DNA of 64,000 nt. Source: a virus (Duplodnaviria; Heunggongvirae; Uroviricota; Caudoviricetes). The translations under genes were made by a program, and so were the position numbers. The notes under the pieces are model-generated. The model saw only the letters and a list, made by a program, of their open reading frames with translations. It was not told the origin of the DNA and did no database searches. Location of the stretch: positions 29,122 through 93,121 of IMG/VR virus record IMGVR_UViG_3300032030_000021. The stretch is one strand, 5' to 3'. The stretch's first letter is position 1. Each line of letters begins with the position of its first letter. This document shows positions 5,933-62,081 of this stretch, in pieces.

Positions 5933-6385
5933 ATGAAATCTATAACAGAATCTATAATAGGGAGAAAAAACTCGTATAAAGGAAAAGACCTTAAACAACT
6001 AATTCTTAGTGAAATAGATATGAAGGACTTTCCGTATATTCGAGAAACGTCTAAGAACTATAAAAACAATCTTCTAGACGATAAATTCTTATATGCACTG
6101 GATAATATCCAAGGATGCGATAATGATTTCAAGATTGCTGCAGTTTATGATATGATGGGATATATAGAGGCTCAGTATGATATTAATGCCGGCGATGATG
6201 GTGTTGCGGATCAAGGTGCATATAATATGATAGAGATGATATCCGATCCCAATCGGAATCAAAATGACTTTTACGCCTTCATACATACTCCTAGCCGTGG
6301 TGGAAATCCCTCCTGGTCCGGACTATCTCAGCAATATGCGGAAATAGCCGAACTTTTCTTAGATCCGGATTTTGAATTAATATAA
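5933..6385 (+). CDS. N-terminal MK..ESIIGRKG-tagged family protein (putative capsid-targeted internal protein)
   Basis: Starts MKSITESIIGRKNSY. Lies directly upstream of the prohead protease gene. Confidence 0.6.
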   Translation: MKSITESIIGRKNSYKGKDLKQLILSEIDMKDFPYIRETSKNYKNNLLDDKFLYALDNIQGCDNDFKIAAVYDMMGYIEAQYDINAGDDGVADQGAYNMIEMISDPNRNQNDFYAFIHTPSRGGNPSWSGLSQQYAEIAELFLDPDFELI

Positions 6386-6390
6386 CTCAT

Positions 6391-6852
6391 ATGAAAACCA
6401 TAACCGAATCCATATTAGACCGCATTAACGGCAATCGTTTCGGAGGAAACAAGACACTTCGTGCCTCTCAACAGGAAGCGGATCTTTTCCTAGTGCAAAC
6501 CGACTTCAAAAACAGCTTTAAAGACTGGCAGCTTTCCAAGTGTACATGTGTAAGCAAGTTATCCGAAATCAAGTATCGGGAATGCTGGAAAGAATCTCTA
6601 ATAGTGCCCAATGCCGAACTTCCGTTAAGCCAAGAAGAAGTAGAGAAAGTGCTTAAAGAAGACTTTAAAGGAACAGTCTTGGTAGAAAAAGTCTATCCGG
6701 AAGATATATATCTGAAACTGCCGTACATAAAAATGATTCCCCTAAAGTCCGGAGAGTCAATTCCTAATGCCCAGGCTATGTGGTGGTTCGGGGATTGGTT
6801 CACCAAGACCGAAGTTATGAAAGCTATAAAACAATATATAAATAGTTTATAA
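6391..6852 (+). CDS. tagged-family protein, degenerate motif variant
   Basis: Starts MKTITESILDRINGN and retains I-T-E at residues 4-6. Confidence 0.5.
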   Translation: MKTITESILDRINGNRFGGNKTLRASQQEADLFLVQTDFKNSFKDWQLSKCTCVSKLSEIKYRECWKESLIVPNAELPLSQEEVEKVLKEDFKGTVLVEKVYPEDIYLKLPYIKMIPLKSGESIPNAQAMWWFGDWFTKTEVMKAIKQYINSL

Positions 6853-11713: not shown

Positions 11714-12517
11714 ATGAAAATAAGTCACGAAAGTCCGCTCGCTCTGCTTAAAATCAGCCGAGCTTACAATGATTACGATTACGCATTAGTACATCTTTTT
11801 GAGAAATATCCGAAGTATTATAAATTCTTTGAGGAATCTCTGGGTATGGGCCGCATAGTCATCCTGGATAATTCCATTTTCGAGCTCGGAACGGCATTCG
11901 ATACCGATGAGTTCTACAAATGGGTTCTCAAACTTAACCCGACATATTATATCATTCCGGATGTATTTGATAACTGTGCGGCCACTATCCGCAATGTAAT
12001 TGAGTGGCGAGTAAAATATGGTAGAAAAATTCATGATAGCAAGCCGATGGTAGTGGTTCAGGGTTCTACTCCGGAAGAATTTTTAGATTGTTATCAGACC
12101 CTTTATAAAATGGGTATGCCTATGATTGCGTTTCCGGTCAATTCCAAATCTTACCTTAATGGAAAAGAATACACCCCGCAAAATATGGCTGAGGGCAGAT
12201 ATATGATGATCAATACATGTCTGAACTGGCTCAAAGTGTATCATATCGATACTAATCCAATGCCTGTCAAACATCACCTGCTTGGTCTTTCTCTGCCACA
12301 AGAAGTCGGCTTGTATAAAGACATTCCGGAGATCGTGAGCATCGACACTAGTAATCCGGTGCTACACGGTATGGAAGGTATCTGGTACGACGAAGATGGA
12401 AATTTGTCCGATAAATCACACAACAAGATGCACGAAATGATGGAATGGGCAGTCACCGAAGATCAGTTTGATATTATCTGTCATAATATCACCAAGTTCA
12501 GAAGTCATATAAATTAG
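11714..12517 (+). CDS. tRNA-guanine transglycosylase (TGT) family protein, DpdA-like DNA 7-deazaguanine transglycosylase candidate
   Basis: PMVVVQGSTPEEF...MGMPMIAFPV aligns with TGT lfGIvQGg...GfdGyAiGG. KHHLLGLSLPQEV...IDTSNPVLHGMEG aligns with TGT PrYLMGVGkPddI...DcvlPtrsGrnG. Confidence 0.6.
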   Translation: MKISHESPLALLKISRAYNDYDYALVHLFEKYPKYYKFFEESLGMGRIVILDNSIFELGTAFDTDEFYKWVLKLNPTYYIIPDVFDNCAATIRNVIEWRVKYGRKIHDSKPMVVVQGSTPEEFLDCYQTLYKMGMPMIAFPVNSKSYLNGKEYTPQNMAEGRYMMINTCLNWLKVYHIDTNPMPVKHHLLGLSLPQEVGLYKDIPEIVSIDTSNPVLHGMEGIWYDEDGNLSDKSHNKMHEMMEWAVTEDQFDIICHNITKFRSHIN

Positions 12518-12521
12518 AAAT

Positions 12522-13307
12522 ATGAAAGCCGCAATATTTATAGAATGTGCCGGGGACGAGTTCTTCCAAAAAGAGGCTGACCTTATTGTAGATTCGTATA
12601 ATCGAGCCATATCCTCATATGGTTTGGATATGGAGGTATTCACTTATAAGAATTGCAATGATGGTATCGTACGCCTAGAGGATCATACGATCTTGGTTCC
12701 CGGAGAGGTGCGAGATGGCTGGGCGGATAGAATATATGGCGTATTGGATTATATTCAGGCACATATAGATTGCAAGTGGGTGATTAAGACCAATACTAGC
12801 ACATTGTTGAACCTGGTAGTATTAGATCGATTCATGGAGGATCGGGATCCGGAGTGGTATCATTGTTTTGATATGAAATTCTGGGGCAACGAATTCACTC
12901 TGAATATATTACCGGGCAAATTCTGGCTTTTTCCAAAAGAATTTATACCAGCCATAATCGAAGATTTTTATAATATGCTTCCGAGTATTGATGGCTGGTG
13001 GGATTGCAACTGGGGGACGGACCGGTCTCATCGTGCGCCGGATGATGCTATAATCAGTTATATTACCACCATGAAAAATGTACCGGCGAAAACAATACCT
13101 AGTAATATGGTCGTAGACGTATATCATGATTATTTTTCTAATTTAGATAATTTGAAACCCGGAGATTTACGATCGGCTATGGTTTTCATATTAAGAATGC
13201 ATGTATCCGATGTTATTGCCGTAGAAATGAAAATTCGAAATGAATTTGAAATCAAACTTATGATGTTTATGATCAAACTGGTAGAAGAATTTCAAAATTT
13301 AAATTAA
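12522..13307 (+). CDS. hypothetical protein (Trp/Asp-rich; possible transferase), translationally coupled to the upstream TGT-like gene
   Basis: 261 aa. Starts 5 nt after the TGT-like gene stops. No confident motif. Confidence 0.4.
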   Translation: MKAAIFIECAGDEFFQKEADLIVDSYNRAISSYGLDMEVFTYKNCNDGIVRLEDHTILVPGEVRDGWADRIYGVLDYIQAHIDCKWVIKTNTSTLLNLVVLDRFMEDRDPEWYHCFDMKFWGNEFTLNILPGKFWLFPKEFIPAIIEDFYNMLPSIDGWWDCNWGTDRSHRAPDDAIISYITTMKNVPAKTIPSNMVVDVYHDYFSNLDNLKPGDLRSAMVFILRMHVSDVIAVEMKIRNEFEIKLMMFMIKLVEEFQNLN

Positions 13308-13665: not shown

Positions 13666-14187
13666 ATGCAGTTAACAGGAAAAGAAATTGTACAAGAAGG
13701 AATTATCACTAATTATGATCCGGAGAATGCCATCCAACAGCAAGGCATTGATGTCCGTCTTATGAAAGTCAACAAGTTTGCCGGTGTGGGTTATATCCCC
13801 GCATTTGGCAAGACCAAGCTTCCACAATATGAAGAAGTCGCACCGGAACCACATACGGATGTCTATAACCTGGACCACGATCTCTGGCACTTGCCTAAGG
13901 GATATTATGAGGTTATCATGATGGAAGGATGCAAGACCCCAGCTAACCGCGTGTTTGATCTCAAATCCAGAAGCTCGGTGGTTCGATGTGGAGCCGAAAT
14001 CGTCTGTGGACAATTTGACGGAGGATTCGAGACCGATCATATGGGCTGTTTCCTGAGAGTAGACAATCCGAAAGGCATCTTCATCGAAAAGGGAGCCCGC
14101 ATTGCCCAGGCCAGAGTTCATCAATCTTCGGATGTAGATAATCCATATAATGGACAATTCCAGAACGACAAACAAAGAGCCTCCTAA
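13666..14187 (+). CDS. dCTP deaminase / dUTPase superfamily protein
   Basis: GIDVRL...LPKGYY....FDLKSRSSVVRCGAEIVCGQFDGGFETDHMGCFLRVDNPKGIFIEKGARIAQARVH is the typical dcd/dut beta-jelly-roll signature. Confidence 0.65.
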   Translation: MQLTGKEIVQEGIITNYDPENAIQQQGIDVRLMKVNKFAGVGYIPAFGKTKLPQYEEVAPEPHTDVYNLDHDLWHLPKGYYEVIMMEGCKTPANRVFDLKSRSSVVRCGAEIVCGQFDGGFETDHMGCFLRVDNPKGIFIEKGARIAQARVHQSSDVDNPYNGQFQNDKQRAS

Positions 14188-16936: not shown

Positions 16937-18043
16937 ATGGATGCACAAATCATCATAGGAGCCAATTATGGGGATGAAGGCAAAGGTACCGTCACTGCGC
17001 TGATCACGAATAAATATTTAGGAAACACTCTAAATGTACTGACTAACGGCGGATCTCAACGAGGTCATTCTATCCTCACCAAAGATGGATCTATCACTTA
17101 TCAGCACTTTGGATCCGGCACATATCATGATGCGGATTCTTTTTATTGTAATCGTTTCATCTTGAATCCGGCACAGTTCACTAAAGAATGGAATAATCTG
17201 ATAGAAAAACCCAATGTCTTTCGAGATCCAGGTTGCCTATGGACTACCGTTTGGGATATGATGGCTAATCGCATAGAAGAAGAACGGAAAAAAAGATTTG
17301 CGAGTTGTGGCATGGGTATCTGGAATACCATTAGGAGAAGCCGGAAAGTATATATGAGATTTGACGATTTCATGGCATTAACCAAAAAAGAGCAATCCGC
17401 CTTTCTCCGGAAGGTAAGGTCTTTTTATGAGAACCACTTAGATTTCTCCTCGTTCTGGAAAAAGATCTGGTACGATTATGATATTGAAACTCACTTTCTG
17501 GAAGATTGCCAATTCATGAAAGATCATACTATTTCCGGAACTATTCAAGAGCTCTTGGCTCTTAAAAGTTTATGTACAAATACATATGATAATATAGTGT
17601 TCGAAAACGGACAGGGACTTCTTCTTAAAGACACCGGAAGAGATACATTTGATACTACCCCGTCCGACACCGGAGCTACATATGCATTAGATATCATCAA
17701 AGATCTAGAAAAATGCGGAATGGAGTTTGACACTACTCTTCATTACGTCACTCGTCCATATCTTACCAGGCATGGAGATGGAAATATAAGCAATGAGAAC
17801 AAGAGAACTCACATTTCCGAATCTATCCGGGAGGATAGAACCAACCAATGGAATTCCAATCAAGGAGAGTTCCGGTATGGAAAATTAGATATGGGGGCAT
17901 TAAAAAGTCGCATCGAAGAAGATGCTCGTGGACACAAATATGTGTTAGATGTCACACACTGCGATGAGATGGATCGAAAAACGGAATTTGATAGGATTTT
18001 CGGACCGGAAAATATCCAATATATAGACACTCCAATGATTTAA
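16937..18043 (+). CDS. adenylosuccinate synthetase (PurA) family protein, short phage form (PurZ-like candidate)
   Basis: [20 protein letters not shown] matches PurA [31 protein letters not shown] matches QGGHNAGHTL. Later [11 protein letters not shown] matches FEGAQGTLLD. Length 368 aa versus ~430 aa for cellular PurA. Confidence 0.6.
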   Translation: [368 protein letters not shown]

Positions 18044-18562: not shown

Positions 18563-18976
18563 ATGAGGACATTACAGGAATCTATAATAGGGCGGCGAGG
18601 CTCTCAACATGGGCGTTCTAAATCAAAAGAGCTTAAGTGTTTTGAGGATTTGGAATATGGAGATATTGTAATTATCCAAAATCGCGCGCTTTCGGGCAGT
18701 AAATATTATATATATCTTCCTAAAGGAATATGTTACCTTCTATTCAATAGAACCCGGCTAAGAGAAGATGCATTTGTAACATGTAATCTGAATAACAATA
18801 TGGTACCATTATCTTATTGGAAGGCGGATGGGTTTAATCATTTTGATTTTCCGTTTTTCACAAGAAAAAGTGCGGAAATTGTAAGCTGCGAGGGACATGT
18901 TCAAGAATATTATTCTATAAAAACCGAAGAAGATGTTAAACGTATTTTTAATAAATACAATCTACCAATATCATGA
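18563..18976 (+). CDS. tagged-family protein (subfamily with DLEYGDIVIIQN core and IFNKYNLP C-terminus)
   Basis: Starts MRTLQESIIGRRGSQ. Overlaps the next gene by ATGA. Confidence 0.65.
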   Translation: MRTLQESIIGRRGSQHGRSKSKELKCFEDLEYGDIVIIQNRALSGSKYYIYLPKGICYLLFNRTRLREDAFVTCNLNNNMVPLSYWKADGFNHFDFPFFTRKSAEIVSCEGHVQEYYSIKTEEDVKRIFNKYNLPIS

Positions 18977-19377
18977 AAACACTGCAAGAATCTATAATAG
19001 GAAGAAAAGGATCTTCTATCCGTTCTAAATCAAAAGCGCTTAGGTGTTTTGGAGATTTGGAATATGGAGATATTGTAATTATCCAAAATTACTCACGTCG
19101 GGATAGCAAATATTATATATATCTTCCTAAAGAGATATGCTCGCCTCTATTTAATTTCTTAAGAGAAGATGCATTCGTAACATGTAATCTAAACGACAAA
19201 TTGGTACCATTATCTTATTGGAAGGCGGATGGCTTTAATTATTATGGTTTTCCGCTTTTCGCAGCAGGTGCCGCCGAAATTGTGAGTTATGAGGGGCATG
19301 TTCGAGAATACAATTCTATAAAAACCCAGGTAGATGTTAAACGCATTTTTGACAAATACAATCTACCAATATCATGA
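18973..19377 (+). CDS. tagged-family protein (same subfamily)
   Basis: Starts MKTLQESIIGRKGSS. C-terminus KRIFDKYNLPIS. Confidence 0.65.
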   Translation: MKTLQESIIGRKGSSIRSKSKALRCFGDLEYGDIVIIQNYSRRDSKYYIYLPKEICSPLFNFLREDAFVTCNLNDKLVPLSYWKADGFNYYGFPLFAAGAAEIVSYEGHVREYNSIKTQVDVKRIFDKYNLPIS

Positions 19378-19742
19378 GAACGTTGCAAGAATCCATAATA
19401 GGGCGAAAAGGCACACCATATCGAAAACCAATACCGAAAAGTTTTGATGATCTAGAATATGGGGATTTTATTGAGATAAGTGGAATTTTTGGCGGTACAT
19501 TTTTATATGTTCCGCATTCTGTGTCTGATATATATTTTAATAATAATGTGGATGCATTTATAAGACCTTCTGATTACTGGACGGCAGAAACCTTTAAATT
19601 TTCATTTCCATATCATAATACCGACAAAACTCATAAAATAGAAAAAATAATTGGGTCTGTTAGTGAAAATGAATATAGTAATTTGAAAACCAAAAAAGAC
19701 GTATCTCATCTTTTTAATAAATATAATATACCGAGCAAATGA
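19374..19742 (+). CDS. tagged-family protein (same subfamily)
   Basis: Starts MRTLQESIIGRKGTP. C-terminus SHLFNKYNIPSK. Confidence 0.65.
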   Translation: MRTLQESIIGRKGTPYRKPIPKSFDDLEYGDFIEISGIFGGTFLYVPHSVSDIYFNNNVDAFIRPSDYWTAETFKFSFPYHNTDKTHKIEKIIGSVSENEYSNLKTKKDVSHLFNKYNIPSK

Positions 19743-20392
19743 AAACACTTTATGAATCGATAATAGGAAGGAAAGGATCATATCTAGGTGGTGTCCCAGT
19801 AGTATTCTGGAATAAATATGACCCGACCGACATAAGTATCGTGATAGACATGCCCCGAAACGTCATAGGGGTTATAGAACAGTCAGATGAGGGTGATTGT
19901 ATTTTAGAAATAAAAAATCTTAATAGCATCCATATATTATATATGTCCGGCGAACCGGGTTGTACTGCTATCTTAGATACAAAATGCCGATTATTGAATG
20001 AATTTCAAAACAAGTTTGAATCGGAATATAATAGAGTTCTCTCCGGTGTAACCGTTCAAGATTTTATTAAAAGTTATTATAAATATGAATTACATGTGGG
20101 GGATGCATATATTCCCATAGGTAGTATATTGGTACGGGAAATAACAAAATCCATTCCCAGGACACACAAAATACTAGATATATTTGATCCGGATTATGCC
20201 TGGAATGCTTGGACAGAATTTATATGGAATATGCCGGATGCTACTTCTACTACCGGCCCATATTCATTCGGATATGCTATAGTGGATTTAGGGCATAAGA
20301 AAATAATTGAAAGTCCCCGTGGATATAATATTAATATAAGGATGGAAACTTTCAAAGAATTTGGACGGCATAATGAAAGATATGGGAATTAA
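19739..20392 (+). CDS. tagged-family protein, larger member
   Basis: Starts MKTLYESIIGRKGSY. 217 aa. Confidence 0.6.
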   Translation: MKTLYESIIGRKGSYLGGVPVVFWNKYDPTDISIVIDMPRNVIGVIEQSDEGDCILEIKNLNSIHILYMSGEPGCTAILDTKCRLLNEFQNKFESEYNRVLSGVTVQDFIKSYYKYELHVGDAYIPIGSILVREITKSIPRTHKILDIFDPDYAWNAWTEFIWNMPDATSTTGPYSFGYAIVDLGHKKIIESPRGYNINIRMETFKEFGRHNERYGN

Positions 20393-20401
20393 AAGAGACA
20401 C

Positions 20402-20758
20402 ATGAAGCATATCAGCGAATCTATAATAGGAAGAAAAGGAGGTACTTATAATTCATCTAAAATACCCGGAGATTGGTATCCGGGACAAGATCTGGAATAT
20501 GGGGATATTATAGTATCGAATTGGAAGAATATGTATTATATATGCCTTCCGGTTAAACAATGTATCGGATGGTGGGGTAGATATGACGGGCCAAGAGCTC
20601 AGACGGCCCTGATAAGATATAGTCCTTCTGGAGCTCGTTATACTAGTAACCTCGCAAGTGATTATCAATTTGTAAGATATATAAGAGAATATAAAAATAT
20701 AAAGACACCAGAAGATCTTAAACGCATTTTTGATAAATATAACATACCACACGAATGA
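20402..20758 (+). CDS. tagged-family protein (same subfamily)
   Basis: Starts MKHISESIIGRKGGT. C-terminus KRIFDKYNIPHE. Confidence 0.65.
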   Translation: MKHISESIIGRKGGTYNSSKIPGDWYPGQDLEYGDIIVSNWKNMYYICLPVKQCIGWWGRYDGPRAQTALIRYSPSGARYTSNLASDYQFVRYIREYKNIKTPEDLKRIFDKYNIPHE

Positions 20759-21330
20759 GAACACTTAGCGAATCTATAATAGGACGAAAGGGGAGTGTAG
20801 GATACCAATATGCTACACTAGGCCACCGAGACGAACTTATCTTGAGCGTCAATGCTATAGAACCTATTGGTAGTAAACCTACTAATTCCAATCCCCTACC
20901 TAAAGAAATTGTTTTTATATCCTGGGACGAAATCGGTATATATCCGGTAGTCACCGGATGTAGTACGGAAAACGAACTGAAACGGAAGATAATAAGCGTG
21001 TATGATGCACTGAAATCCACTAGCATGGAAGATATATGCAATCTGATGTGCATAGAATGGAAAGTTAAGTCCAATTGGTTCAAGTTTCCACTTTGGTGTG
21101 TGGTAGAATATTTCCGGGATGAGTGGGAGGATATGATGAATATAGATGTAACTGATCCACTAAGCAAATGGGCGTCTGATAGCGAATTGTATGATAAAAT
21201 TATTGCTTGGATAAAGGATACCCCATATCAATTTACTCCAGAAACCGAAATGTTTTGGTCTATAATAGATACTAATACCGGAAAGATAATAGCACGGAGC
21301 AGAACCGGCAAAATAATAATTGATAAATGA
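20755..21330 (+). CDS. tagged-family protein
   Basis: Starts MRTLSESIIGRKGSV. Confidence 0.6.
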   Translation: MRTLSESIIGRKGSVGYQYATLGHRDELILSVNAIEPIGSKPTNSNPLPKEIVFISWDEIGIYPVVTGCSTENELKRKIISVYDALKSTSMEDICNLMCIEWKVKSNWFKFPLWCVVEYFRDEWEDMMNIDVTDPLSKWASDSELYDKIIAWIKDTPYQFTPETEMFWSIIDTNTGKIIARSRTGKIIIDK

Positions 21331-21635
21331 GAACACTCAGCGAATCTATAATAGGACGGAAAGGAACTCGACCACAAACCAATATTATCAAGGATTGTCG
21401 CGATATGATTTCTAGAATAGACCATTCTCCATGGAAAGAAGCTATGGTGATGGCAACGAATTATTATGATGTCTTAATACAAAATAGATACCAATATCCC
21501 GAGGAAGTCCGGCAAATTATAGATGATTCTATAAACGAATGGTCCGGTAAGGTTTTATCTAAGATATCTAGCACCGACATTATGATACAGGCTATCAGGA
21601 GCATTTCCAATCTAGCTAAAAAACAAAGATCATGA
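21327..21635 (+). CDS. tagged-family protein
   Basis: Starts MRTLSESIIGRKGTR. Confidence 0.6.
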   Translation: MRTLSESIIGRKGTRPQTNIIKDCRDMISRIDHSPWKEAMVMATNYYDVLIQNRYQYPEEVRQIIDDSINEWSGKVLSKISSTDIMIQAIRSISNLAKKQRS

Positions 21636-22042
21636 AATCTATAACCGAATCTATAATAGGAAGAAGAGGAGTTTCCGGAAAACTACACAAATTCGACGAT
21701 TTAAAATACGGGGATTTTGTGGTTATTGATATGCCTGCCGAACAAAAAATGTTCGATTGCCTGTATGTACCGGAATATATTGCTATGAAAGTAATTTCTT
21801 ATCCTGGACCTACGGATGATTTTGGTCGATTTATATGTGTTGATCACAACGGTAAGGATATATCTTCTTTCCGGGCCGATAAGTTTGTAGATGACTTTCC
21901 GGATTGCCCCGAAGATGATGAATTTTTTTATAGTAAAATAGTAAATAAAATCGGCCATACGGAAGAATATGTTTCTTTAAAGGACAGAAAAGACGTGATA
22001 AATCTTTTTAAGAAATATAATTTAATAGGATTCCATCGCTAA
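21632..22042 (+). CDS. tagged-family protein (same subfamily)
   Basis: Starts MKSITESIIGRRGVS. C-terminus INLFKKYNL. Confidence 0.6.
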   Translation: MKSITESIIGRRGVSGKLHKFDDLKYGDFVVIDMPAEQKMFDCLYVPEYIAMKVISYPGPTDDFGRFICVDHNGKDISSFRADKFVDDFPDCPEDDEFFYSKIVNKIGHTEEYVSLKDRKDVINLFKKYNLIGFHR

Positions 22043-24174: not shown

Positions 24175-25737
24175 ATGAAAGAATTAGATTTTGATTATCC
24201 GGAATTTGAAAAATTAAATCCATCTAATTGTAGAGAAGCATCTATTAGTATTCATTATCCCGAATTTAAGGAATATTTATACAACAAATATCCAGACATA
24301 CCGTTTCCTGAAAAAATATATTTATTTTATCATAACAAGGGCAATCCCGGGATTTGTAAGATGTGTGGAAATAAGACGAAATTTATTGGATTTAAGAAAG
24401 GATATAGGGAGTTTTGTTCTTACGAATGCATGAATTCTTGCGAAGAAATACAAGAACGCAAAAAAATTACATGTCGAAAAAATTATGGCACAGACAACCC
24501 TATGGGTAGTCTTGAGTTAAAAGAAAAAATAAAACGGACATGTTTAGAAAAATATGGAGTAGAGAATTGCTTTCAGTCACCGGAGCTCATGAAAAAAGCT
24601 CGAAAAACATGCAAAAGAAAATACGGGACGGAATATGCTACTCAGTCCCTGTCTGTAAAAGATAAAATATTAGAATCTAGAAGACAGAATATATTAAATA
24701 ATGATGACAGTATATTAGATATTATTCACACAGACAATCATTCCGATCTTTATATTATGAAGTGTCCGGATTCCGGATGCAATCTGTGTTCTAAAAAAAG
24801 ATATGAAATAAAATCTAATATATTATATGATCGTTGCAGATTAGGAGTAGACCCGTGCACTATAAGAACTCCAGTGGGGTCCCATATCAAAAATACGGGT
24901 CTTGAAAAATTTGTTCAAAATATATTAGATGAGTATCATATACATTATATAGCTAATGATAGAAGAATTTTGGATGGGAAAGAATTAGATTTATATATCC
25001 CGGATAGAAAAATAGCTATAGAATGCAATGGTGTATATTGGCATTCTAAATTAGATATGTTTTATCATTATAATAAGTGGCAATATTGTAAAGAAAAAGG
25101 AATTCAACTACTGTCGGTTTGGGAAGATTGGGTGACTAATAAACCGGATGTAATTAAAAATATTATATTGTCTAAGTTGAATATATATGATAATTTTATT
25201 GGTGCGCGAGAATGTGCGGTGGAGCCCGTATCCGCAAAAGAGGCGCGAGTGTTTTTAGATGAAAATCATATTCAAGGTTTTTGTAGTAGCACTATAAGAT
25301 ATGGATTATATTATAAAAATGAATTGGTGGCTTTAATGTGCTTCAAAAAAACTAATAATCCATCTTCTAAAAGGAATATTGGGTGGGAGTTATTAAGGTT
25401 TTGTTCGAAAATAGGATGGCACATAGCCGGGGGTGCTGGCAAGTTATTGAAATACTTCCGGGAAGATCATCCTGAACCAATTATATCATTTGCGTCTCAT
25501 GATATCTCTAATGGAAAATTATATGAAACACTCGGATTTCGGCATACTAGTGAAATTAAAACCTGCTATTGGTATGTCCATAACCAAACTCATAAAAGAT
25601 TTCATCGATCCTCATTTACTAAAAAAGAATTGGTAAGAAAAGGATATGATTCCAAGCTTACCGAAGAACAAATTATGATAAACTCAGATTATTTTAAAAT
25701 ATATGATTCCGGACAAACAAAATACATTTTGGAGTGA
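24175..25737 (+). CDS. free-standing homing-endonuclease-like protein (Vsr/DUF559-like nuclease domain plus zinc ribbon and tandem K-x-T-C-x-x-K-Y-G-x-E-N modules)
   Basis: Contains CKMCGNKTKF, three ~33-aa TC..KYG.EN repeats, and ELDLYIPDRKIAIECNGVYWHS (Vsr FVHGCFWHGH-like) followed by WEDW. Confidence 0.55.
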   Translation: MKELDFDYPEFEKLNPSNCREASISIHYPEFKEYLYNKYPDIPFPEKIYLFYHNKGNPGICKMCGNKTKFIGFKKGYREFCSYECMNSCEEIQERKKITCRKNYGTDNPMGSLELKEKIKRTCLEKYGVENCFQSPELMKKARKTCKRKYGTEYATQSLSVKDKILESRRQNILNNDDSILDIIHTDNHSDLYIMKCPDSGCNLCSKKRYEIKSNILYDRCRLGVDPCTIRTPVGSHIKNTGLEKFVQNILDEYHIHYIANDRRILDGKELDLYIPDRKIAIECNGVYWHSKLDMFYHYNKWQYCKEKGIQLLSVWEDWVTNKPDVIKNIILSKLNIYDNFIGARECAVEPVSAKEARVFLDENHIQGFCSSTIRYGLYYKNELVALMCFKKTNNPSSKRNIGWELLRFCSKIGWHIAGGAGKLLKYFREDHPEPIISFASHDISNGKLYETLGFRHTSEIKTCYWYVHNQTHKRFHRSSFTKKELVRKGYDSKLTEEQIMINSDYFKIYDSGQTKYILE

Positions 25738-27353
25738 TGGAGATACCAAATATTAGCAACCTTACATCCAAAGAACTTCAGGGTAAGTGGTTTGAAAAGA
25801 ATTATCTGGAGTTTTATCAGCATCTTGTAAATACATATCCAAATCTCCAAAAATTCACTGAAAAATTGTATTGGTATCTCCACGATATCAAAGAAACACC
25901 GAAATGTACTTGCGGAAAACCTCTGAAGTTCCGGAGTCTCAAGGTCGGATATTCCGAGTTCTGTTCGGCCAAATGTTCTAATTCTAATCCGGAAAAAATC
26001 AAAAAGACTAAAAATACATGTCAAGAACGATATAGATCCTCTTCTCCGGCCGGCAATAAAGACATCCAAGATAAAATGAGGAAAACATGTCTGGAAAAGT
26101 ATGGTGTAGAAAATTATCTAGAAATTTCCCATCGAACGGGAAGTCTTTCGGAAGAATCTAAGCAAAAAATGAAAGAAACCTGTATAGAAAGATACGGTGT
26201 GGAAAATGTGATGAAGCTTCCGGAATATCAAGTTATTGTCAATGGAAATAAAGATTATAAAAAACTATCGGAAAAAGCTCGAGAGGCTCGAAAAAACCGG
26301 GTTATGAATCAAAATCCGGATATAATATCTATAAAAAATGGTTTATGGACTTGCCGGTGTCCCCATCCCAATTGTACCAAATGCGATAAAAAATCATATG
26401 AAATAACGGCTCAAATGTATCATGATCGCCGAAGAGATCATACGGAGCCTTGTACTATACTTTTAGCACCTTCACCGAATAACAATAAAAATACTTCTTT
26501 AGAAATTTTTGTACGGTGTTTATTAGAAGAGCATAATATAGAATATATTGCAAATGATCGATCTATATTAGGAGGCAAAGAACTAGATATATACATTCCG
26601 GATCGGAAAATAGCCATAGAATGCAATGGTGTTTTTTCACATAGCTCTAGATATAAACCTAGAAATTATCATTATGAAAAATATAAAGCTTGTTCGGAGC
26701 GGAACATCCGTCTTATAAGTATCTGGGAGGACTGGGTTCGGAATAAGCCGGAAATTGTCCGGAGTCTGATTTTAAGCAAGCTGAACATATATGAGAACCG
26801 TATAATGGCTCGTAAATGTGAGGTGAAAGAGATAAATAGTAAAATAACAGGTAAATTTTTAGAAGAAAATCATATTCAAGGAAAAACTTCTTCAAATATA
26901 CATTTGGGCCTATATTATAAAAACGAATTGGTGGCGGTGATGCTGTTTGGAAAAAAACGAATGTGCTCCGGGAATAATAAAACAGCTGGGTGGGATTTAA
27001 GCAGATTTTGTACTAAAAGAAATATTTGTGTGATTGGGGGTGCGGGGAAGTTATTAAGTTATTTTATAAAACGGTGGTCTCCGGATATGATATATTCGTT
27101 TGCATCATGTGATATTTCTAATGGAAATCTTTATAAGTCTTTAGGGTTTGTAAATATAGGCCATTCCTCTTCATATTGGTATATAAACGAGCGCACCCTT
27201 CAAAGATATCATAGAAGTTCCTTTACTAAAAAATCCTTGATAAAACGAAACTGGGCTGATGGAACGGAAACTGAAACTGATGTAATGAATAATCATGGAT
27301 TCTTGCAAATCTATGATTCCGGTACGGAAAAGTGGATACTGAAGATTATCTAA
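25734..27353 (+). CDS. paralog of the upstream Vsr-like endonuclease
   Basis: Same architecture (ELDIYIPDRKIAIECNGVFSHS, ISIWEDWVRNKPE). ATGA overlap with the upstream paralog. Confidence 0.55.
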   Translation: MMEIPNISNLTSKELQGKWFEKNYLEFYQHLVNTYPNLQKFTEKLYWYLHDIKETPKCTCGKPLKFRSLKVGYSEFCSAKCSNSNPEKIKKTKNTCQERYRSSSPAGNKDIQDKMRKTCLEKYGVENYLEISHRTGSLSEESKQKMKETCIERYGVENVMKLPEYQVIVNGNKDYKKLSEKAREARKNRVMNQNPDIISIKNGLWTCRCPHPNCTKCDKKSYEITAQMYHDRRRDHTEPCTILLAPSPNNNKNTSLEIFVRCLLEEHNIEYIANDRSILGGKELDIYIPDRKIAIECNGVFSHSSRYKPRNYHYEKYKACSERNIRLISIWEDWVRNKPEIVRSLILSKLNIYENRIMARKCEVKEINSKITGKFLEENHIQGKTSSNIHLGLYYKNELVAVMLFGKKRMCSGNNKTAGWDLSRFCTKRNICVIGGAGKLLSYFIKRWSPDMIYSFASCDISNGNLYKSLGFVNIGHSSSYWYINERTLQRYHRSSFTKKSLIKRNWADGTETETDVMNNHGFLQIYDSGTEKWILKII

Positions 27354-34397: not shown

Positions 34398-34856
34398 ATG
34401 AAACATATAAGCAAATCTATTACGGAGTCTATTATAGGAAAGAAAGGATCGGATAATATTGATATTATAGCCGATATATTTTTAAAATTTTTCGGAAGCT
34501 ATCTGAAAAAACCGGAAATTGGCGAAATAGCGTTGTATATAGATGTTGATAAAAGCCATTATACCGGCCAAGACTTCCAGTATGATTTCGCATTTGTGAG
34601 GAACGATATTGGTACATATAGGAAAATAGCGGCGTCTTTTGCTAATGCTATCAATGGAAATATCTATAAAGAATCTTCCGGATTCAAAGGTGGAGTTTGG
34701 TATTGGGATCCGGAAACTATTATAGAAATACCGAATGTGAAATTTTATATAGGGAGAAGGCTCGGAAACAGAAGACACCCTAAGGACATATCCAATACGA
34801 CTTATATCAGCATATCAAATAAGATGTTGTGGATGAAAATATATGAAATGTTATAA
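34398..34856 (+). CDS. tagged-family protein with 4-aa insertion in the tag
   Basis: Starts MKHISKSITESIIGKKGSD. Confidence 0.6.
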   Translation: MKHISKSITESIIGKKGSDNIDIIADIFLKFFGSYLKKPEIGEIALYIDVDKSHYTGQDFQYDFAFVRNDIGTYRKIAASFANAINGNIYKESSGFKGGVWYWDPETIIEIPNVKFYIGRRLGNRRHPKDISNTTYISISNKMLWMKIYEML

Positions 34857-38520: not shown

Positions 38521-38536
38521 CTTAAAAAGGATCGAT

Positions 38537-38920: not shown

Positions 38921-38924
38921 AAAC

Positions 38925-39326: not shown

Positions 39327-39330
39327 AAAA

Positions 39331-40127: not shown

Positions 40128-40142
40128 AATAAACATTGAAAT

Positions 40143-40670: not shown

Positions 40671-40684
40671 ATATAATAAGGATT

Positions 40685-41592: not shown

Positions 41593-41701
41593 ACATGAAA
41601 GAAACCAAAGAATACGGTAATTGTGATATGATTTGCTGGGATTGCGAATCTTCCGCGCATTGTTGGTATTTTGAGTCTTTATTGAAAGAAAATGAAGAAT
41701 T

Positions 41702-42127: not shown

Positions 42128-42151
42128 CTTATAAGAATCAATATAGAAGAT

Positions 42152-42884: not shown

Positions 42885-43337
42885 ATGGTAAGAGAAAAAA
42901 TAAACATCCCAAAACATCCTAAAGAATTCAGAACTGTAAAACTAAAAGATCTGAAACCTCACCCCGGAAACCCTCGCCACAATGAGCGAAGTGCCGAGAT
43001 GGTGGCGGAGTCAATCAAATCATATGGATACATCTCTCCGATAGTGGTATCCGAAGATAATACTATTCTGGCAGGACATACCAGATATAAAGCTCTTAAG
43101 ATCTTAGGACAGGATGAGGCTGAAGTTATAGTGGTGTTCGGACTCACTCCGGAAGAGATATTGGGTTTCGTTATTGCCGATAACCGTATCGGAGAATATT
43201 CCGGATGGAATTATGAAGCCGTCAATCGGATGATTGGAGACATCGAAGACAAATCTATGATGAACAAAATGGGAATGTCTACCTATGAAGACAATAAGAA
43301 AGAATTAGAGGATCTGATCAATGGAATCGAAACATAG
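42885..43337 (+). CDS. ParB/Srx-like nuclease domain protein (DpdB-like partner candidate)
   Basis: KLKDLKPHPGNPRHN...ISPIVVSEDNTILAGHTRYKALKILG is the ParB N-terminal domain signature. Overlaps the downstream TGT-like gene. Confidence 0.6.
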   Translation: MVREKINIPKHPKEFRTVKLKDLKPHPGNPRHNERSAEMVAESIKSYGYISPIVVSEDNTILAGHTRYKALKILGQDEAEVIVVFGLTPEEILGFVIADNRIGEYSGWNYEAVNRMIGDIEDKSMMNKMGMSTYEDNKKELEDLINGIET

Positions 43338-44142
43338 ATTTGTATATGGGCTTGGTGGGGGCCTGGTATATTCTACCGGTCAAGGCGGAAAATGGCAAGA
43401 AAATCTCCCTAAGATCTTGGCCACTTTTGATAATGCCGTTCTAGTAAGTCCGGTAGATATGCCTAAGAAGGCAGCTATTTTGATATACAATAGTGTAGGC
43501 ACAGATCGATTCTATTTGGACTCCGGGGGTTTCACACTCTTCAAGGATCAAGTCAAGCTCGGAGCGGATAACCCGGAATTCCACACCAAGTGCGAAAAGA
43601 TGAAAAATAAATTTCTCAATATCCTCAAAGAAGTCCGCCCAGTGGAAGTCTTTGAATTAGATAATGAATATTTCCGGCACGATCCTGATATGCTTTCTCC
43701 GAAGAACTATTGCCGGCAAGAAATCTATGATATTATAGGCAAGTATCCGACTCCGGTATTCAAGATGCACCAAGGTTTTGAATATTGGAAACGATTATGC
43801 GAGTGTGATCTATATCCCCGACTAGCTATCGGCGGTCTGGCTCAGACCCGGGAATGGAATAAGCATCCGGAGGAGTTTCGGAAGATGATGGCTTATGCCC
43901 GGCAATGTGGTAAGAAAGTCCACCTTCTGGGTTGCTATAATGTGGATGCCTTCAAGACTATCCGGCCGGATACCGCTGACTGGTCTATATTCGAGTTCAA
44001 GCAGAATATCAAGAGAGCCCGCCGGGAACATCCGGAACTTAAGACACATGCCGAGCTTTCTATACACGCGGCTCTTTATGCATTCGCTCGAGCCAGGTCT
44101 AAATCATTTCTTTATGATACATGCTTGGACGAAAACGAATAA
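43321..44142 (+). CDS. second TGT-family protein (DpdA-like DNA transglycosylase candidate)
   Basis: FYLDSGGFTLF matches TGT DSGGFQ (catalytic Asp region). RLAIGGLAQ matches GYAIGGLSVGE. KVHLLGCYNVDAF matches YLMGVGKPDDI. Confidence 0.55.
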   Translation: MESKHRFVYGLGGGLVYSTGQGGKWQENLPKILATFDNAVLVSPVDMPKKAAILIYNSVGTDRFYLDSGGFTLFKDQVKLGADNPEFHTKCEKMKNKFLNILKEVRPVEVFELDNEYFRHDPDMLSPKNYCRQEIYDIIGKYPTPVFKMHQGFEYWKRLCECDLYPRLAIGGLAQTREWNKHPEEFRKMMAYARQCGKKVHLLGCYNVDAFKTIRPDTADWSIFEFKQNIKRARREHPELKTHAELSIHAALYAFARARSKSFLYDTCLDENE

Positions 44143-44197: not shown

Positions 44198-44764
44198 ATG
44201 AATGTATATTTCACAGGCGCCCAAGGTACGGGCAAAACGACTTTAGCGAATCTTTTGGAAACTATTGGTTTCAAAAAGATCCCTTCCGTAACCAGATCTC
44301 TCATTGAGAAGGAGGAGTTATCTCCGGAGCGGACATCCCAAGGAGCTACCCCTGAAACTCAGAAGATCATCTTTGATGAATATTATAAAATCTTCCGGAC
44401 CCAAAAGGCCATTGTGAGCGACCGCTTTCTGACAGATGTATTTGCTTACACCAAATATCTCTATAAAAGAGATGAGGATGAGGATTCCTTAAGCGAACTT
44501 CATCGGGAAAGAGAAAAGATCGATGAAATAGCATTTTATCAAGGGCTACTCTATGGAGATGCGGATGCCGTAGTTTTCTATTGCCCTGTTGAATTCGAGG
44601 TGGAATCCGATGGAGTTCGGGATACGGATGAGGAATATAGGAAGACTATCGATGAATATATCAAAAAAGAATTAATCCGCCAAGGTATTCGTTTTCATGA
44701 GCTTCATGGATCCGTAGAAGAACGTATGAAAACTATCAAATCCGTTCTATATCAACACATTTAA
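44198..44764 (+). CDS. P-loop nucleotide/nucleoside kinase-like protein
   Basis: Walker A FTGAQGTGKTTLANLL at the N-terminus. Small (188 aa), consistent with (d)NMP or nucleoside kinase folds. Confidence 0.5.
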   Translation: MNVYFTGAQGTGKTTLANLLETIGFKKIPSVTRSLIEKEELSPERTSQGATPETQKIIFDEYYKIFRTQKAIVSDRFLTDVFAYTKYLYKRDEDEDSLSELHREREKIDEIAFYQGLLYGDADAVVFYCPVEFEVESDGVRDTDEEYRKTIDEYIKKELIRQGIRFHELHGSVEERMKTIKSVLYQHI

Positions 44765-48169: not shown

Positions 48170-48170
48170 A

Positions 48171-55018: not shown

Positions 55019-55021
55019 ATC

Positions 55022-57562: not shown

Positions 57563-57617
57563 TCAGGCTTAAGAAAATCCGTTAATAGATTATATATATT
57601 CAAAATAATTATACTCT

Positions 57618-60080: not shown

Positions 60081-60986
60081 ATGTCGAAACCCAAATTACC
60101 CATTATCGAATTATTCACTAGTATCCAAGGTGAGGGTATGTATGCCGGAGTACCATCCGTATTTGTGAGAGTAACCGGCTGTAATCTCCGGTGTATCTTC
60201 AAGAATTCTATCTGTGATACACCTTATAGTTCTTTTAATCCGGAAAAACCAAAGTTCACTGTAGAAGATGTAGCTAAAGAGTTTATTAACCATCCAAAAG
60301 TCAATCATCTGGTAATTACTGGCGGAGAACCCACATTATATGATCTAGATGGTTTCATAGAGGAACTAAATAGTATCTTGTTTAAAGAAACTGGAATTGA
60401 TCGTGCTTATAATATAGAGGTCACTATTGAAACTAATGGTACCAATGAGATTTCGAAAAAACTTTTGAATACATTAGAATTAATTTCCGTTTCACCTAAG
60501 CTTTCCGCCTCATGCCTTTCGGATCGTGTTATAAAAGAACTAGAAGATCCGAATGGTAATGTGGGTATACAGATCAATGACGGTATTGATGAAAAAGGAA
60601 ATTGTAAAAAGAAAGATGTCTGGGCATCTGCCGAACAACTCCGTAATCATAACAAAAACCGCATCAATATTGATGTTCTGACGGATTTTGCGGATGCATT
60701 TGCCGACGTACAATACAAATTTGTATATTCGGGACCGGAATCTGAAAAAGAGATCTTAGAGATCCGCGATAAGATTGCAGACAAATTACAATTGAGATAT
60801 CCGGATGTAGGATCAGAAGATCTTCGTGAAGTCATCGATGAATATATCTGGTTGATGCCGGAAGGGATAGACTCCGAAAGATTATCCGAGACCGCCAAAG
60901 AAGCGGTAGAGGTATGTATCCGTAACGGATGGCACTATACCGACCGATTGCATATTCGGATCTGGGGTAACGAGCGTAATAAATAA
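60081..60986 (+). CDS. queE: 7-carboxy-7-deazaguanine synthase (QueE, radical SAM)
   Basis: IELFTSIQGEGMYAGVPSVFVRVTGCNLRCIFKNSICDTPYS matches the QueE signature (QGEG...P.vFvRl.GCnLrC..CDTpy). AAATAAATA box upstream. Confidence 0.65.
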   Translation: MSKPKLPIIELFTSIQGEGMYAGVPSVFVRVTGCNLRCIFKNSICDTPYSSFNPEKPKFTVEDVAKEFINHPKVNHLVITGGEPTLYDLDGFIEELNSILFKETGIDRAYNIEVTIETNGTNEISKKLLNTLELISVSPKLSASCLSDRVIKELEDPNGNVGIQINDGIDEKGNCKKKDVWASAEQLRNHNKNRINIDVLTDFADAFADVQYKFVYSGPESEKEILEIRDKIADKLQLRYPDVGSEDLREVIDEYIWLMPEGIDSERLSETAKEAVEVCIRNGWHYTDRLHIRIWGNERNK

Positions 60987-62078: not shown

Positions 62079-62081
62079 GTC

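Follow-up and report, generated by a model that had tools for sequence, protein, structure and literature searches.

We propose that a 64,000-nucleotide stretch of a Caudoviricetes genome (IMG/VR record IMGVR_UViG_3300032030_000021; hereafter the window) probably contains the scattered pieces of a conserved phage module that exchanges guanine in DNA for a 7-deazaguanine derivative. The module consists of an enzyme of the known DpdA3 subfamily (ORF A) and a second TGT-fold enzyme (ORF B) with a small ParB-like partner, a pairing that is seen in dozens of phages. We demonstrate the homology, the fold, the retained catalytic positions and the gene linkage of these parts. The original prediction, that QueE, two different DpdA-type transglycosylases and a ParB-like partner form a system for 7-deazaguanine modification of DNA, is supported by the que-gene clusters of relatives, and the presence of ORF B and its ParB-like partner in such clusters beside DpdA3 strengthens the 7-deazaguanine reading considerably. 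The four ORFs on which the prediction was built were all found exactly where it had placed them and in the superfamilies it had named (Table 1). When 8 kb of the window was searched for near-identical DNA among 50,697 phage genomes, no match appeared.

Table 1. Genes of the window assigned to the putative guanine-exchange module
Feature	Position in window	Strand	Properties and matches
DpdA3-subfamily TGT-fold protein (ORF A)	11714..12517	+	267 aa, acidic, pI 5.6
dUTPase/dCTP-deaminase-fold protein	13666..14187	+	Pfam DCD 2.7e-10; PDB 9w59 8.6e-15
Small ParB N-terminal-domain protein	42885..43337	+	150 aa; ParB_N 8.9e-7, phrog_620 3.4e-37
Second DpdA-like TGT-fold protein (ORF B)	43321..44142	+	273 aa, basic, pI 8.7
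AAA_28 P-loop protein	44198..44764	+	Pfam AAA_28 5.3e-21; phrog_2107 1.7e-25
QueE-like radical-SAM enzyme	60081..60986	+	301 aa; phrog_2076 1.8e-45, Radical_SAM 1.2e-10

ORF A belongs to the DpdA3 subfamily

DpdA3 is the subfamily tied to complete guanine replacement, and in CP220-type phages 100% of G is replaced by dADG, yet activity has never been shown for any DpdA3 (PMC10516641). By sequence, we assign ORF A specifically to this subfamily and not as the partner of the ParB-like protein. In tblastn searches it was 41% identical to the immuto DpdA3 gene over 100% of its length (6e-49), 41% identical to DpdA3 of CP220, CP21 and CPt10 (about 1e-45) and 24% identical to DpdA3 of phiST (1e-8), and it matched phrog_19058 over its full length (6e-50). 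ORF A is thus a full-length homologue in the DpdA3 system of Cellulophaga phiST CGPG_00065, Campylobacter CP220 gp056 and Flavobacterium immuto gp64 (Hutinet et al. 2023, PMC10516641), with the same length, conserved motifs and TGT-like barrel; its own motifs read LDNSIF, VVQG, HHLLG.S.P and DTSNP, and its predicted model is a TIM barrel of the TGT/DpdA type. As in CP220, the gene lies directly after the tail-sheath gene. DpdA3 is linked to 7-deazaguanine genes both in the window, by QueE, and in relatives, where QueC, QueD, QueE and FolE occur alongside. The proteins of this subfamily are acidic, with a median pI of 5.3.

Three active-site aspartates of ORF A, D52, D83 and D211 (acid/base, base recognition and nucleophile), are invariant in 47 homologues. 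The spacing D52-x3-F56 equals D95-x3-F99 of bDpdA, and the distance from HHLLG to D211 matches that from HLLG to D256, a correspondence based on the register of the motifs and on weak profile matches (NCBIfam DpdA, 0.011; 7ui4, E 1.5) and not on superposed structures. Single-sequence and profile searches of PDB sequences with ORF A and ORF B gave nothing usable. A PurA-like gene near DpdA3 was considered as PurZ of the 2-aminoadenine pathway and rejected, as the NCBIfam PurZ match (13 bits, E 0.035) ranked below the PurA models.

ORF B represents a separate family of DpdA-like enzymes

Profile comparisons place ORF B in a tight family that is a remote sister of phage DpdA1/DpdA2 and for which we found no description in the literature searched. 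ORF B matches phrog_887, labelled 'queuine tRNA-ribosyltransferase', at 8.8e-14, and its family aligns with 50 phrog_887-type phage DpdAs with an hhalign probability of 99.7% (E 3e-26) and the invariant motifs in register. Residues D67, D114, H201/L203/G204 and D220 are invariant in the family, F71 is kept in at least 90% of the sequences, and the invariant residues align with D53, D94, H178/L180/G181 and D197 of the distant phrog_887-type relatives (group A4). In these relatives, D53 with F57, the leucine of HGLG and D197 align in turn with D95/F99, L236 and D256 of bDpdA, and D94 would, from its position, correspond to D130. Active-site positions, aspartates included, are hence conserved in both TGT-like ORFs, in agreement with their proposed DpdA-like character. 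Of the TGT-fold sequence blocks that had been reported, ORF B contains DSGGF, HQG, AIGGLA and VHLLG...P..D, whereas AIGG, reported for both ORFs, is missing from ORF A. The A4 relatives all match phrog_887. Among cultured phages, they have homologues in, for example, the 9g-type JenP2/BRET and in Pseudomonas phage Iggy, the DpdA of which was characterised experimentally (PMC10484667).

ORF B resembles phage DpdA1/DpdA2 (phrog_887; for example Enterobacteria phage 9g, Vibrio phage VH7D and Pseudomonas phage Iggy) in its barrel core and in every invariant motif (DSG.F, ELD, H.LG and the nucleophilic D), and both groups are basic or near-neutral and linked to preQ0-pathway genes. Unlike DpdA1/DpdA2, ORF B co-occurs with DpdA3 and nearly always follows a ParB_N gene that overlaps it. 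An exhaustive profile search showed a gap that would set ORF B outside both the DpdA1 and the DpdA2 clade: seven representatives scored 1e-68 or better, one 161-aa partial sequence followed at 1.6e-28, and the next full-length relatives started from 1e-16. Invariants specific to the family are PVFKMHQG and YWK.LC. At 1e-5, ORF B matched a single record among the 50,697 phage genomes, Campylobacter phage CC_R7, and its family comprises about 200 protein-database clusters versus about 3,200 for DpdA3. The median pI of the family is near neutral (7.6) and that of DpdA1/2-like proteins is 9.2, with the basic window copy in between.

The fold match of the ORF B model to TGT/DpdA did not stand apart from generic TIM barrels, and its family membership therefore rests on profiles, motifs and context. 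Alignment of the ORF B and DpdA3 families reached an hhalign probability of 34%, over the HLLGC motif only, and that of DpdA3 with DpdA1/2-like proteins 1.5%; ORF A and ORF B are thus not linkable through sequence profiles alone. By our inference, ORF B would act as a DNA-guanine transglycosylase.

Conserved linkage of ORF B, ParB and DpdA3 in related phages

Of 55 IMG/VR loci that encode an ORF B homologue, 44 have a ParB-like gene immediately upstream of it, 43 have DpdA3 within 10 kb and 34 have AAA_28 within the same distance. The same loci also hold QueC (41), FolE (32), QueE (30) and QueD (30), and 32 of them a dUTPase-fold or other NTP-pyrophosphatase gene. A typical gene order is QueD-QueE-FolE-ParB-ORF B-dUTPase-fold-AAA_28-QueC-DpdA3, and about 40 independent contigs have ORF B within que-gene clusters. 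One locus (L008) combines QueD, QueE, a DpdA3-like gene, ParB_N, the ORF B homologue and FolE2 inside 13 kb, and another (L011) has QueD-FolE2-ParB-ORF B with QueE further on. Related contigs extend to about 150 kb for a DpdA3 relative and to about 210 kb for ORF B relatives. CC_R7, a cultured phage with a complete genome, encodes FolE, QueD, QueE, QueC, a DpdA3-like protein followed by an AAA_28 homologue, ParB and ORF B. DpdA3 and ORF B are separated by 31 kb in the window and by 75 kb in CC_R7. In 41 pairs the end of the ParB gene runs into the start of ORF B, with 8 nt as the commonest overlap; in the window, where the ParB-like ORF had been noted as lying upstream of and overlapping the second TGT-like gene, the overlap amounts to 17 nt. 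Some phages (L033-L040, L012) have a second ORF B copy without an adjoining ParB. Nothing relevant on a phage DpdA paired with ParB was found in the literature searched.

Eighty DpdA3 loci have neither ORF B nor ParB, and in 63 of these AAA_28 lies within 6 kb of DpdA3, compared with 28 for any que gene. The ORF B/ParB pair thus appears as an add-on to a DpdA3/AAA_28 core. CP220-type phages are also without ORF B or ParB and, given their complete replacement, the pair is dispensable for complete replacement.

Pathway genes and other neighbours

All three elements of the QueE signature that had been reported for the radical-SAM ORF (QGEG, GCNLRC and CDTPYS) were found. Its cluster motif is C-x3-C-x6-C in place of the usual C-x3-C-x2-C. 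Five NCBIfam QueE models match the ORF at 3e-18 to 9e-15, with scores of 55-66 bits where the cut-offs are 200-300 and with alignments mostly in its N-terminal half, and it is 40% identical to the QueE adjoining QueD in L008. As predicted, queE is the only pathway gene visible in the window: FolE, QueD and QueC were absent from Pfam scans of 27 window ORFs, tblastn with the genes of relatives detected no QueD or FolE2 in the window, and HMM searches gave no match to QueD, FolE/FolE2 or QueC in the window and its flanks (about 6.5 kb left and about 10 kb right, represented by contigs that share the window's proteins). The pathway of this phage is therefore incomplete as seen. A phosphoribosyltransferase was likewise not found in the window or these flanks.

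The AAA_28 protein, annotated as 'thymidylate kinase'-like, is 31% identical to CP220 gp057, which follows DpdA3 in that phage. Unlike in most other DpdA3 loci, DpdA3 of the window lies apart from AAA_28, which here follows ORF B, and the window encodes a second DpdA-like enzyme that is missing from all three characterised DpdA3 phages. The PDB entry matched by the dUTPase-fold ORF (9w59) is a 'probable dUTPase'. This gene lies 1.1 kb downstream of DpdA3, a position comparable to that of the NTP-pyrophosphatase-type genes next to DpdA3 in other phages (MazG in phiST, NTP-PPase in immuto, HD in CP220); its homologues in L042, L022 and L053 either separate ORF B from the AAA_28 gene or lie beside DpdA3, and a dUTPase-DpdA3 fusion protein exists (P0206). 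In immuto, in L053 and in several DpdA3 loci the module includes a phosphoribosyltransferase gene, and CC_R7 encodes one elsewhere in its genome.

Proposed mechanism and alternative explanations

The mechanism that we propose is inferred as regards the enzyme activities, the DNA substrate, the role of the ParB-like protein, and which modified base arises and how far it replaces G. QueE would produce 7-carboxy-7-deazaguanine, and FolE, QueD and probably a QueC-type enzyme would be encoded elsewhere in the genome, as in relatives. Two highly dissimilar TGT-fold enzymes, DpdA3 and ORF B, would then install the base, and the latter is translationally coupled to the small ParB N-terminal-domain protein. 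Insertion of preQ0 by bacterial DpdA requires the ATPase of the ParB-like DpdB (PMC10164549), and by analogy the ParB-like partner may provide NTP-dependent loading onto, or opening of, DNA for ORF B. ORF B and ParB would constitute an accessory second insertion route on top of the DpdA3/AAA_28 core. The earlier suggestion that the two paralogues insert different bases or work in different sequence contexts found neither support nor contradiction.

The neighbouring genes also allow an alternative, rather unlikely hypothesis, in which complete replacement is reached mainly before replication at the nucleotide level. Here, dGTP would be removed by the dUTPase-fold, MazG or HD enzyme, the 7-deaza nucleotide would be generated by a phosphoribosyltransferase or by DpdA3 acting on dGMP, AAA_28 would phosphorylate it for the phage polymerase, and ORF B with its NTP-driven ParB_N partner would be the sole transglycosylase at the DNA level, clearing residual G once replication is over. 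The frequent proximity of AAA_28, more than of any que gene, to DpdA3, the NTP-pyrophosphatase-type genes beside DpdA3 (in the window the dUTPase-fold gene), the dUTPase-DpdA3 fusion, the phosphoribosyltransferase genes in or outside the module of relatives, and the acidic nature of DpdA3, which differs from DNA-acting DpdA1/2, all point in this direction. However, no TGT-fold enzyme is known that acts on mononucleotides, many phages carry dNMP kinases and dUTPases as general genes, AAA_28 could equally serve as ATPase partner of DpdA3, and the window yielded no phosphoribosyltransferase. For Campylobacter phages a route through modified dGTP has been proposed, and free ADG nucleoside was reported from infected cells (PMC6884629, PMC10516641), whereas in the work that defined DpdA3 insertion after replication is the favoured route (PMC10516641). 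If replacement were divided in this way, DpdA3 would not, or not solely, be a DNA transglycosylase, and ORF B/ParB would represent a fifth phage DpdA subfamily that converged on the bacterial DpdA-DpdB design.

Insertion into DNA by both enzymes, our preferred reading, also has to be weighed against other roles of the TGT-fold proteins. The strict linkage of the two genes in most loci, and the appearance of QTRT2 among the structural matches of both models, would suit a heteromer in which ORF B, as a paralogue of DpdA3, has a regulatory or otherwise non-catalytic part, comparable to QTRT2-QTRT1 of eukaryotic TGT. We strongly doubt this, as every catalytic position is invariant in the ORF B family, ORF B possesses its own coupled partner in ParB, the genes are far apart in the window and in CC_R7, and CP220-type phages have DpdA3 without ORF B. 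The PHROG label of ORF B and the occurrence of TGT and ArcTGT among the fold matches could suggest that one or both proteins modify host or phage tRNA, thereby boosting queuosine-type modification, and not DNA. This is highly improbable: neither ORF matches the Pfam model of tRNA TGT/ArcTGT (PF01702) at E<=1 or carries the CxCxxC...H zinc motif, and both are barrel cores of about 270 aa that stop about 100 residues ahead of the TGT zinc subdomain, leaving no room for C-terminal zinc/RNA-binding modules. Furthermore, their closest characterised relatives act on DNA, a ParB-domain partner is present, and the window is without tRNA genes. We give scarcely any credence to a merely superficial TGT resemblance of ORF B as an unrelated TIM-barrel enzyme; although its family profile matches nothing in PDB sequences, both the in-register alignment with phrog_887-type DpdAs and the recurrent position within que-gene clusters argue against it.

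Implications for guanine replacement in phages

Phage DNA with 7-deazaguanine is a major counter-defence, and no assay has yet detected DpdA3 activity that would explain how some phages reach 100% G replacement. One sub-lineage of the DpdA3 phages carries a further DpdA-like enzyme, which is of a more conventional kind and is accompanied by a ParB-domain protein of its own. The constant companion of DpdA3 is the AAA_28 P-loop protein and not the que genes, and the module also includes dUTPase-fold and phosphoribosyltransferase genes. AAA_28, ParB, dUTPase-fold and phosphoribosyltransferase proteins are thus concrete partners for co-expression in the assays that earlier failed, and pre- versus post-replicative installation becomes directly testable, with CC_R7 and its close relative CP220 as a natural pair with and without ORF B/ParB.

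Relationship of the ParB-like protein to known systems

The match of the ParB-like ORF to Pfam ParB_N (29.3 bits, cut-off 26.3) covers residues 14-83 only, and Pfam detected no DNA-binding domain in the rest of the protein. Family members have 140-174 aa and share the invariant motifs N29-P-R31 and G64-x-T-R67-x-x-A70; the latter reads G64-H-T-R67-Y-K-A70 in the window, and G64, T66, R67 and A70 show no variation among 16 members of the family. The nearest solved relatives of the family profile in PDB are Noc/ParB/Spo0J CTPase N-domains (3e-6).

Bacterial DpdA-DpdB (Salmonella Montevideo; PMC10164549, PDB 7ui4) likewise combines a TGT-fold transglycosylase with a ParB-superfamily NTPase-type protein, and its catalytic Asp/Phe/Leu positions are equivalent to those of the window enzymes. 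The parallel to DpdB that had been drawn holds as a functional analogy but not as orthology, and we rejected the ParB-like protein as a DpdB: it has no DpdB match in PADLOC or NCBIfam, carries GxxRxxA in place of DGQQR and is only 150 aa long. DpdB is a larger, two-domain protein with DGQQR and a C-terminal helical domain (PMC10164549), whereas the window partner is a ParB/Noc-type N-domain. The transglycosylases differ as well, ORF A and ORF B being about 140 residues shorter than bDpdA. The NCBIfam DpdA model NF041059 gives 14.6 bits for ORF A against a cut-off of 200 and no match for ORF B, and the PADLOC DpdA model matches ORF A at E 0.0098 and ORF B not at all. None of the bacterial dpdC-K restriction genes was noticed in Pfam and PHROG scans of the window ORFs. 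Compared with bacterial Dpd, which is a host defence, the window would encode an anti-restriction module of a lytic phage.

The ParB-like ORF also matches the ParB_N part of ParB_N-methyltransferase fusions from phages and plasmids (phrog_498, 3e-31; PADLOC MTase_II, 6e-18). In these fusions the domain is attached to a methyltransferase, whereas in the window it is a separate protein with a putative base-exchange partner; the combination of a ParB N-domain with a DNA-modifying enzyme thus appears to be a recurring design.

Gene content and context of the module

The window encodes two proteins of the TGT fold whose catalytic positions are intact (ORF A and ORF B), a ParB N-domain partner with an intact nucleotide-binding motif and a QueE-like enzyme, and this set shows tight, conserved linkage to the preQ0 pathway. 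The decisive evidence for a 7-deazaguanine module is the gene context in relatives. All four ORFs of the original prediction were found at exactly its coordinates (Table), with the ParB-like gene directly 5' of, and overlapping, the second TGT-like gene as it had claimed. The window, at 38.5% GC, resembles DNA of a large tailed phage: among its products are a tail sheath, baseplate proteins, a Gp23-like capsid protein, sigma-like factors and a family B DNA polymerase. A near-identity DNA search with 8 kb of it found no close relative among 50,697 phage genomes.

Table. Module genes and further features of the window and of Campylobacter phage CC_R7
Genome	Feature	Position	Strand	Remark
Window	ORF A	11714-12517	+	267 aa
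Window	Acidic ORF	12522-13307	+	261 aa
Window	PurA-like gene	16937-18043	+	
Window	ORF after capsid gene	24175-25737	+	
Window	ORF after capsid gene	25734-27353	+	
Window	FkbM-family paralogue	34999-35769	+	
Window	ParB-like ORF	42885-43337	+	150 aa
Window	ORF B	43321-44142	+	273 aa; start overlaps ParB-like stop by 17 nt
Window	FkbM-family paralogue	49369-50154	+	
Window	QueE-like ORF	60081-60986	+	301 aa
CC_R7	QueE	13.8 kb		
CC_R7	QueD	67.7 kb		
CC_R7	QueC, DpdA3-like, AAA_28	102.7-104.7 kb		
CC_R7	FolE	113 kb		
CC_R7	ParB + ORF B	178 kb		ORF B 57% identical

On a related 209-kb contig (L008), QueD, QueE, a DpdA3-like gene, ParB_N, ORF B (71% identical) and FolE2 lie within 13 kb, and at locus L011 QueD-FolE2-ParB-ORF B stand in a row with QueE farther along. 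Among 55 ORF B loci from an IMG/VR scan, annotated with HMMs built for this analysis, ParB lies directly 5' of ORF B in 44 and DpdA3 at most 10 kb away in 43, with QueC (41), an AAA_28 'thymidylate kinase-like' gene (34), FolE (32), a dUTPase-fold or other NTP-pyrophosphatase gene (32), QueE (30) and QueD (30) nearby. In 41 pairs the end of ParB runs into the start of ORF B, most commonly with an 8-nt overlap. The order QueD-QueE-FolE-ParB-ORF B-DCD-like-AAA_28-QueC-DpdA3 of locus L042 is typical, and Pfam upheld the QueC, DCD and AAA_28 calls. DpdA3 is out of range in 12 of the 55 loci: eight ParB-less copies (L033-L040), of which four are second copies, sharing a contig with a first copy in a full module, and four lie on short contigs, and four close relatives of the window that share its scattered layout. 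In the window itself, DpdA3 (11.7 kb) and the DCD-like gene (13.7 kb) are separated from ParB, ORF B and AAA_28 (together at 42.9-44.8 kb) and from QueE (60.1 kb). QueD, FolE and QueC were not found in the window or in the ~6.5 kb and 10 kb that flank it, which bears out the statement that only queE is visible. The QueE-like protein has the cluster motif C-x3-C-x6-C and a divergent C-terminal half and is otherwise ordinary.

Long QueC-like ORFs (~595-630 aa) occur in the module of L042, L046, L049, L054, L057, L060, L065, L068 and L071; in the L042 one, checked with Pfam, there is an intein that includes a LAGLIDADG domain. Just beyond the right edge of the window, the anaerobic ribonucleotide reductase NrdD (L073, 16411-19776) has an intein as well.

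ORF A, a DpdA3-subfamily protein

Judged by its sequence, ORF A adds a new member to DpdA3, the subfamily defined by Hutinet et al. 2023 in the immuto, Campylobacter CP220-type and phiST groups and tied to complete G replacement by dADG, dDG or fdPreQ1 (PMC10516641). It matches phrog_19058 over its full length (PHROG, 6e-50), and tblastn against phage genomes gave 41% identity to a Flavobacterium phage immuto gene annotated 'DNA guanine transglycosylase' (E 6e-49), 41% to a hypothetical protein of Campylobacter phages CP220, CP21 and CPt10, and 24% to Cellulophaga phiST. Pfam yielded no significant match, only a faint one to DUF6610, the family of archaeal-virus DpdA4 (PMC10516641). Invariant are D52-N-S, P82-D83, Q116-G117, H188/L190/G191 and D211-x-S-x-P; at least 90% of sequences also have F56. 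By motif register and weak profile matches rather than superposition, their spacing matches Asp95/Phe99, Asp130, Leu236 and Asp256 of bacterial DpdA (bDpdA), which are its acid/base, base-recognition, stacking and nucleophile residues (PMC10164549).

ORF B and its ParB-like partner

ORF B is predicted to be a second, very different DpdA-like enzyme. It matches phrog_887 ('queuine tRNA-ribosyltransferase'; PHROG, 9e-14) and nothing in Pfam, NCBIfam or PADLOC. Its family, ~200 clusters in a set of 5.8 billion proteins, none usefully named, is tight: an exhaustive profile search returned only seven 50%-identity representatives at 1e-68 or better, past which came one 161-aa partial match at 1.6e-28 and the next full-length relatives from 1e-16. 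Fifty of these distant relatives were all assigned to phrog_887 (E-values as low as 1e-55); they have homologues in, among others, 9g-type coliphages and Pseudomonas phage Iggy, whose gene is annotated DpdA, and hhalign aligns the relatives with the ORF B profile at 99.7% probability (E 3e-26). The invariants D67-S-G-G, FELD114N, Q151-G152, G171-G172-x-A174, H201/L203/G204 and D220 (F71 in at least 90% of sequences) are in register with those of these relatives, whose LDSGAF, HGLG and VDST align in turn to GDCGAF (Asp95, Phe99), HLLG (Leu236) and IDST (Asp256) of bDpdA (chain numbering of PDB entry 7ui4 is offset by 20). The catalytic aspartates that the original prediction singled out for checking are invariant in both proteins: D52, D83 and D211 in ORF A, and D67, D114 and D220 in ORF B.

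Its view of two distinct TGT-family proteins also holds. Profiles cannot link the two (hhalign 34% probability between the two families, one motif only; 1.5% for DpdA3 against DpdA1/2-like profiles). ORF B is a member of neither bDpdA/DpdB nor tRNA TGT, and in profile searches it falls outside the DpdA1/2 core. Neither protein carries the CxCxxC zinc motif, and both are too short for the C-terminal modules of tRNA TGTs. At pI 8.7 the window's ORF B is basic (its family has a median of 7.6), and DpdA3 proteins are acidic (median 5.3); the median of DNA-acting DpdA1/2-like proteins is 9.2. Some phages have two ORF B paralogues, in tandem after a single ParB gene (L041, L061-L063) or with the second copy ~15 kb away and no adjoining ParB (L033-L040; L022, L024, L027 and L029 on the same contigs).

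The ParB-like partner is a ParB N-domain protein, as predicted, and is not a DpdB orthologue: both the DGQQR motif and a match to the DpdB model are absent. Pfam ParB_N is barely above cut-off (29.3 against 26.3 bits) and phrog_620 matches at 3e-37; the ParB_N part of phage DNA methyltransferases also matches strongly (phrog_498, 3e-31; PADLOC MTase_II, 6e-18). Family members measure 140-174 aa, and N-P-R and G-x-T-R-x-x-A are invariant in 16 aligned members. Among solved structures the profile best matches the CTP-binding N-domain of Noc, ParB and Spo0J (3e-6), and beyond the ParB_N match no helix-turn-helix DNA-binding domain was detected.

An accessory pair added to a DpdA3 core

In a reverse sample of 80 IMG/VR loci chosen by DpdA3 (±6 kb), ORF B or ParB occurred in none and AAA_28 in 63, mostly immediately downstream; the core is therefore DpdA3 plus AAA_28, to which ORF B and ParB are an add-on of a sub-lineage. 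Any que gene was present in only 28 of the 80, and ORF B forms ~200 clusters against ~3,200 for DpdA3. The pair is accessory, because CP220 replaces all G without it, and it may deal with other sequence contexts, another base or residual G. The cultured Campylobacter coli phage CC_R7, a Firehammervirus with a complete 180.6-kb genome (PMC12398825), carries the pair under the database labels 'hypothetical protein' and 'DNA binding protein'; CP220, CP21 and CPt10 of the same genus lack ORF B and differ from CC_R7 in their DpdA3. Where CP220 has an HD/AAA gene, DpdA3 and TMK after its tail-sheath genes (53542-56035), CC_R7 (PQ092953.1) has an unannotated 1.2-kb gap (57348-58539) and no gp056-type DpdA3; its own DpdA3-like gene, only 27% identical to that of CP220, adjoins QueC instead, which points to a cassette exchange inside a single genus.

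The ORF B family, its small ParB_N partner and their systematic co-occurrence with DpdA3 were not found in the literature searched. The combination is a recurrent architecture rather than a new principle, and provides partner proteins for testing enzymes on which assays have so far failed.

Proposed function and alternatives

We propose that QueE makes CDG, that preQ0 or ADG would be made by a QueC-type enzyme encoded elsewhere, and that DpdA3 and ORF B would exchange guanine for the deazapurine. ParB_N may aid ORF B on DNA in an NTP-dependent manner, by analogy with DpdB, whose ATPase bacterial DpdA requires (PMC10164549).

An unlikely alternative is a split pathway, in which the 7-deaza nucleotide would be made at the nucleotide level, before replication, and ORF B with ParB would exchange residual G in the DNA afterwards. 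Pre-replicative hypermodification pathways are known for T4 hydroxymethylcytosine and Z-genome phages, and the DpdA3 neighbourhood resembles them in that its most constant members are of nucleotide-metabolism type. Besides AAA_28 at the 63 loci, these include MazG in phiST, an NTP-pyrophosphatase in immuto, an HD protein in CP220, the dUTPase-fold gene 1.1 kb downstream of DpdA3 in the window, and a phosphoribosyltransferase in immuto, L053 and several other loci (also elsewhere in the CC_R7 genome). In one metagenomic protein (P0206, 408 aa), a complete dUTPase domain of the trimeric type is naturally fused to a full-length DpdA3. Such a pathway would also fit an older proposal of modified dGTP in Campylobacter phages, mentioned in PMC6884629. 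Alternatively, AAA_28 may be an ATPase partner of DpdA3, as ParB_N would be for ORF B.

Other genes in the window

Neither Pfam nor PHROG gave a match for the acidic ORF starting 4 nt past the DpdA3 stop. Another contig of the same phage (L072) also carries this ORF; in phage L003, 79% related, a 76-aa ORF takes its place. At 4.4 kb downstream of DpdA3 lies a divergent, PurA-like homologue of adenylosuccinate synthetase (Pfam 5e-21, phrog_1211). Relatives L003 and L079 keep it at this position, and cluster C mycobacteriophages and Rhizobium phages have similar genes. It was rejected as PurZ (model score only 13 bits), and NCBIfam PurA cut-offs are also far from reached. Two FkbM-family methyltransferase paralogues (Pfam Methyltransf_21, 2e-8 and 2e-10; phrog_8156) possibly serve further DNA or sugar modification. 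Of the two adjacent ORFs (~520-540 aa) just past the capsid gene, the first is homing-endonuclease/HNH-like (phrog_3339, 2e-113); CP220 likewise has a homing endonuclease adjoining its DpdA3 locus.

A very large paralogous family of small ORFs (~90-275 aa) shares the near-identical start M[KR][TSH][IL].ESIIGR[KR]G followed by divergent bodies, at 5933-6852, 18563-22042, 34398-34856, 37696-42577, 47771-49332 and 61016-62450 (-). Five members checked had no PHROG match. The ESIIGR-type motif occurs 28 times in the 64 kb; its ORFs often follow one another in tandem, the stop codon of one overlapping the start of the next, and relative L003 has similar runs of small ORFs.
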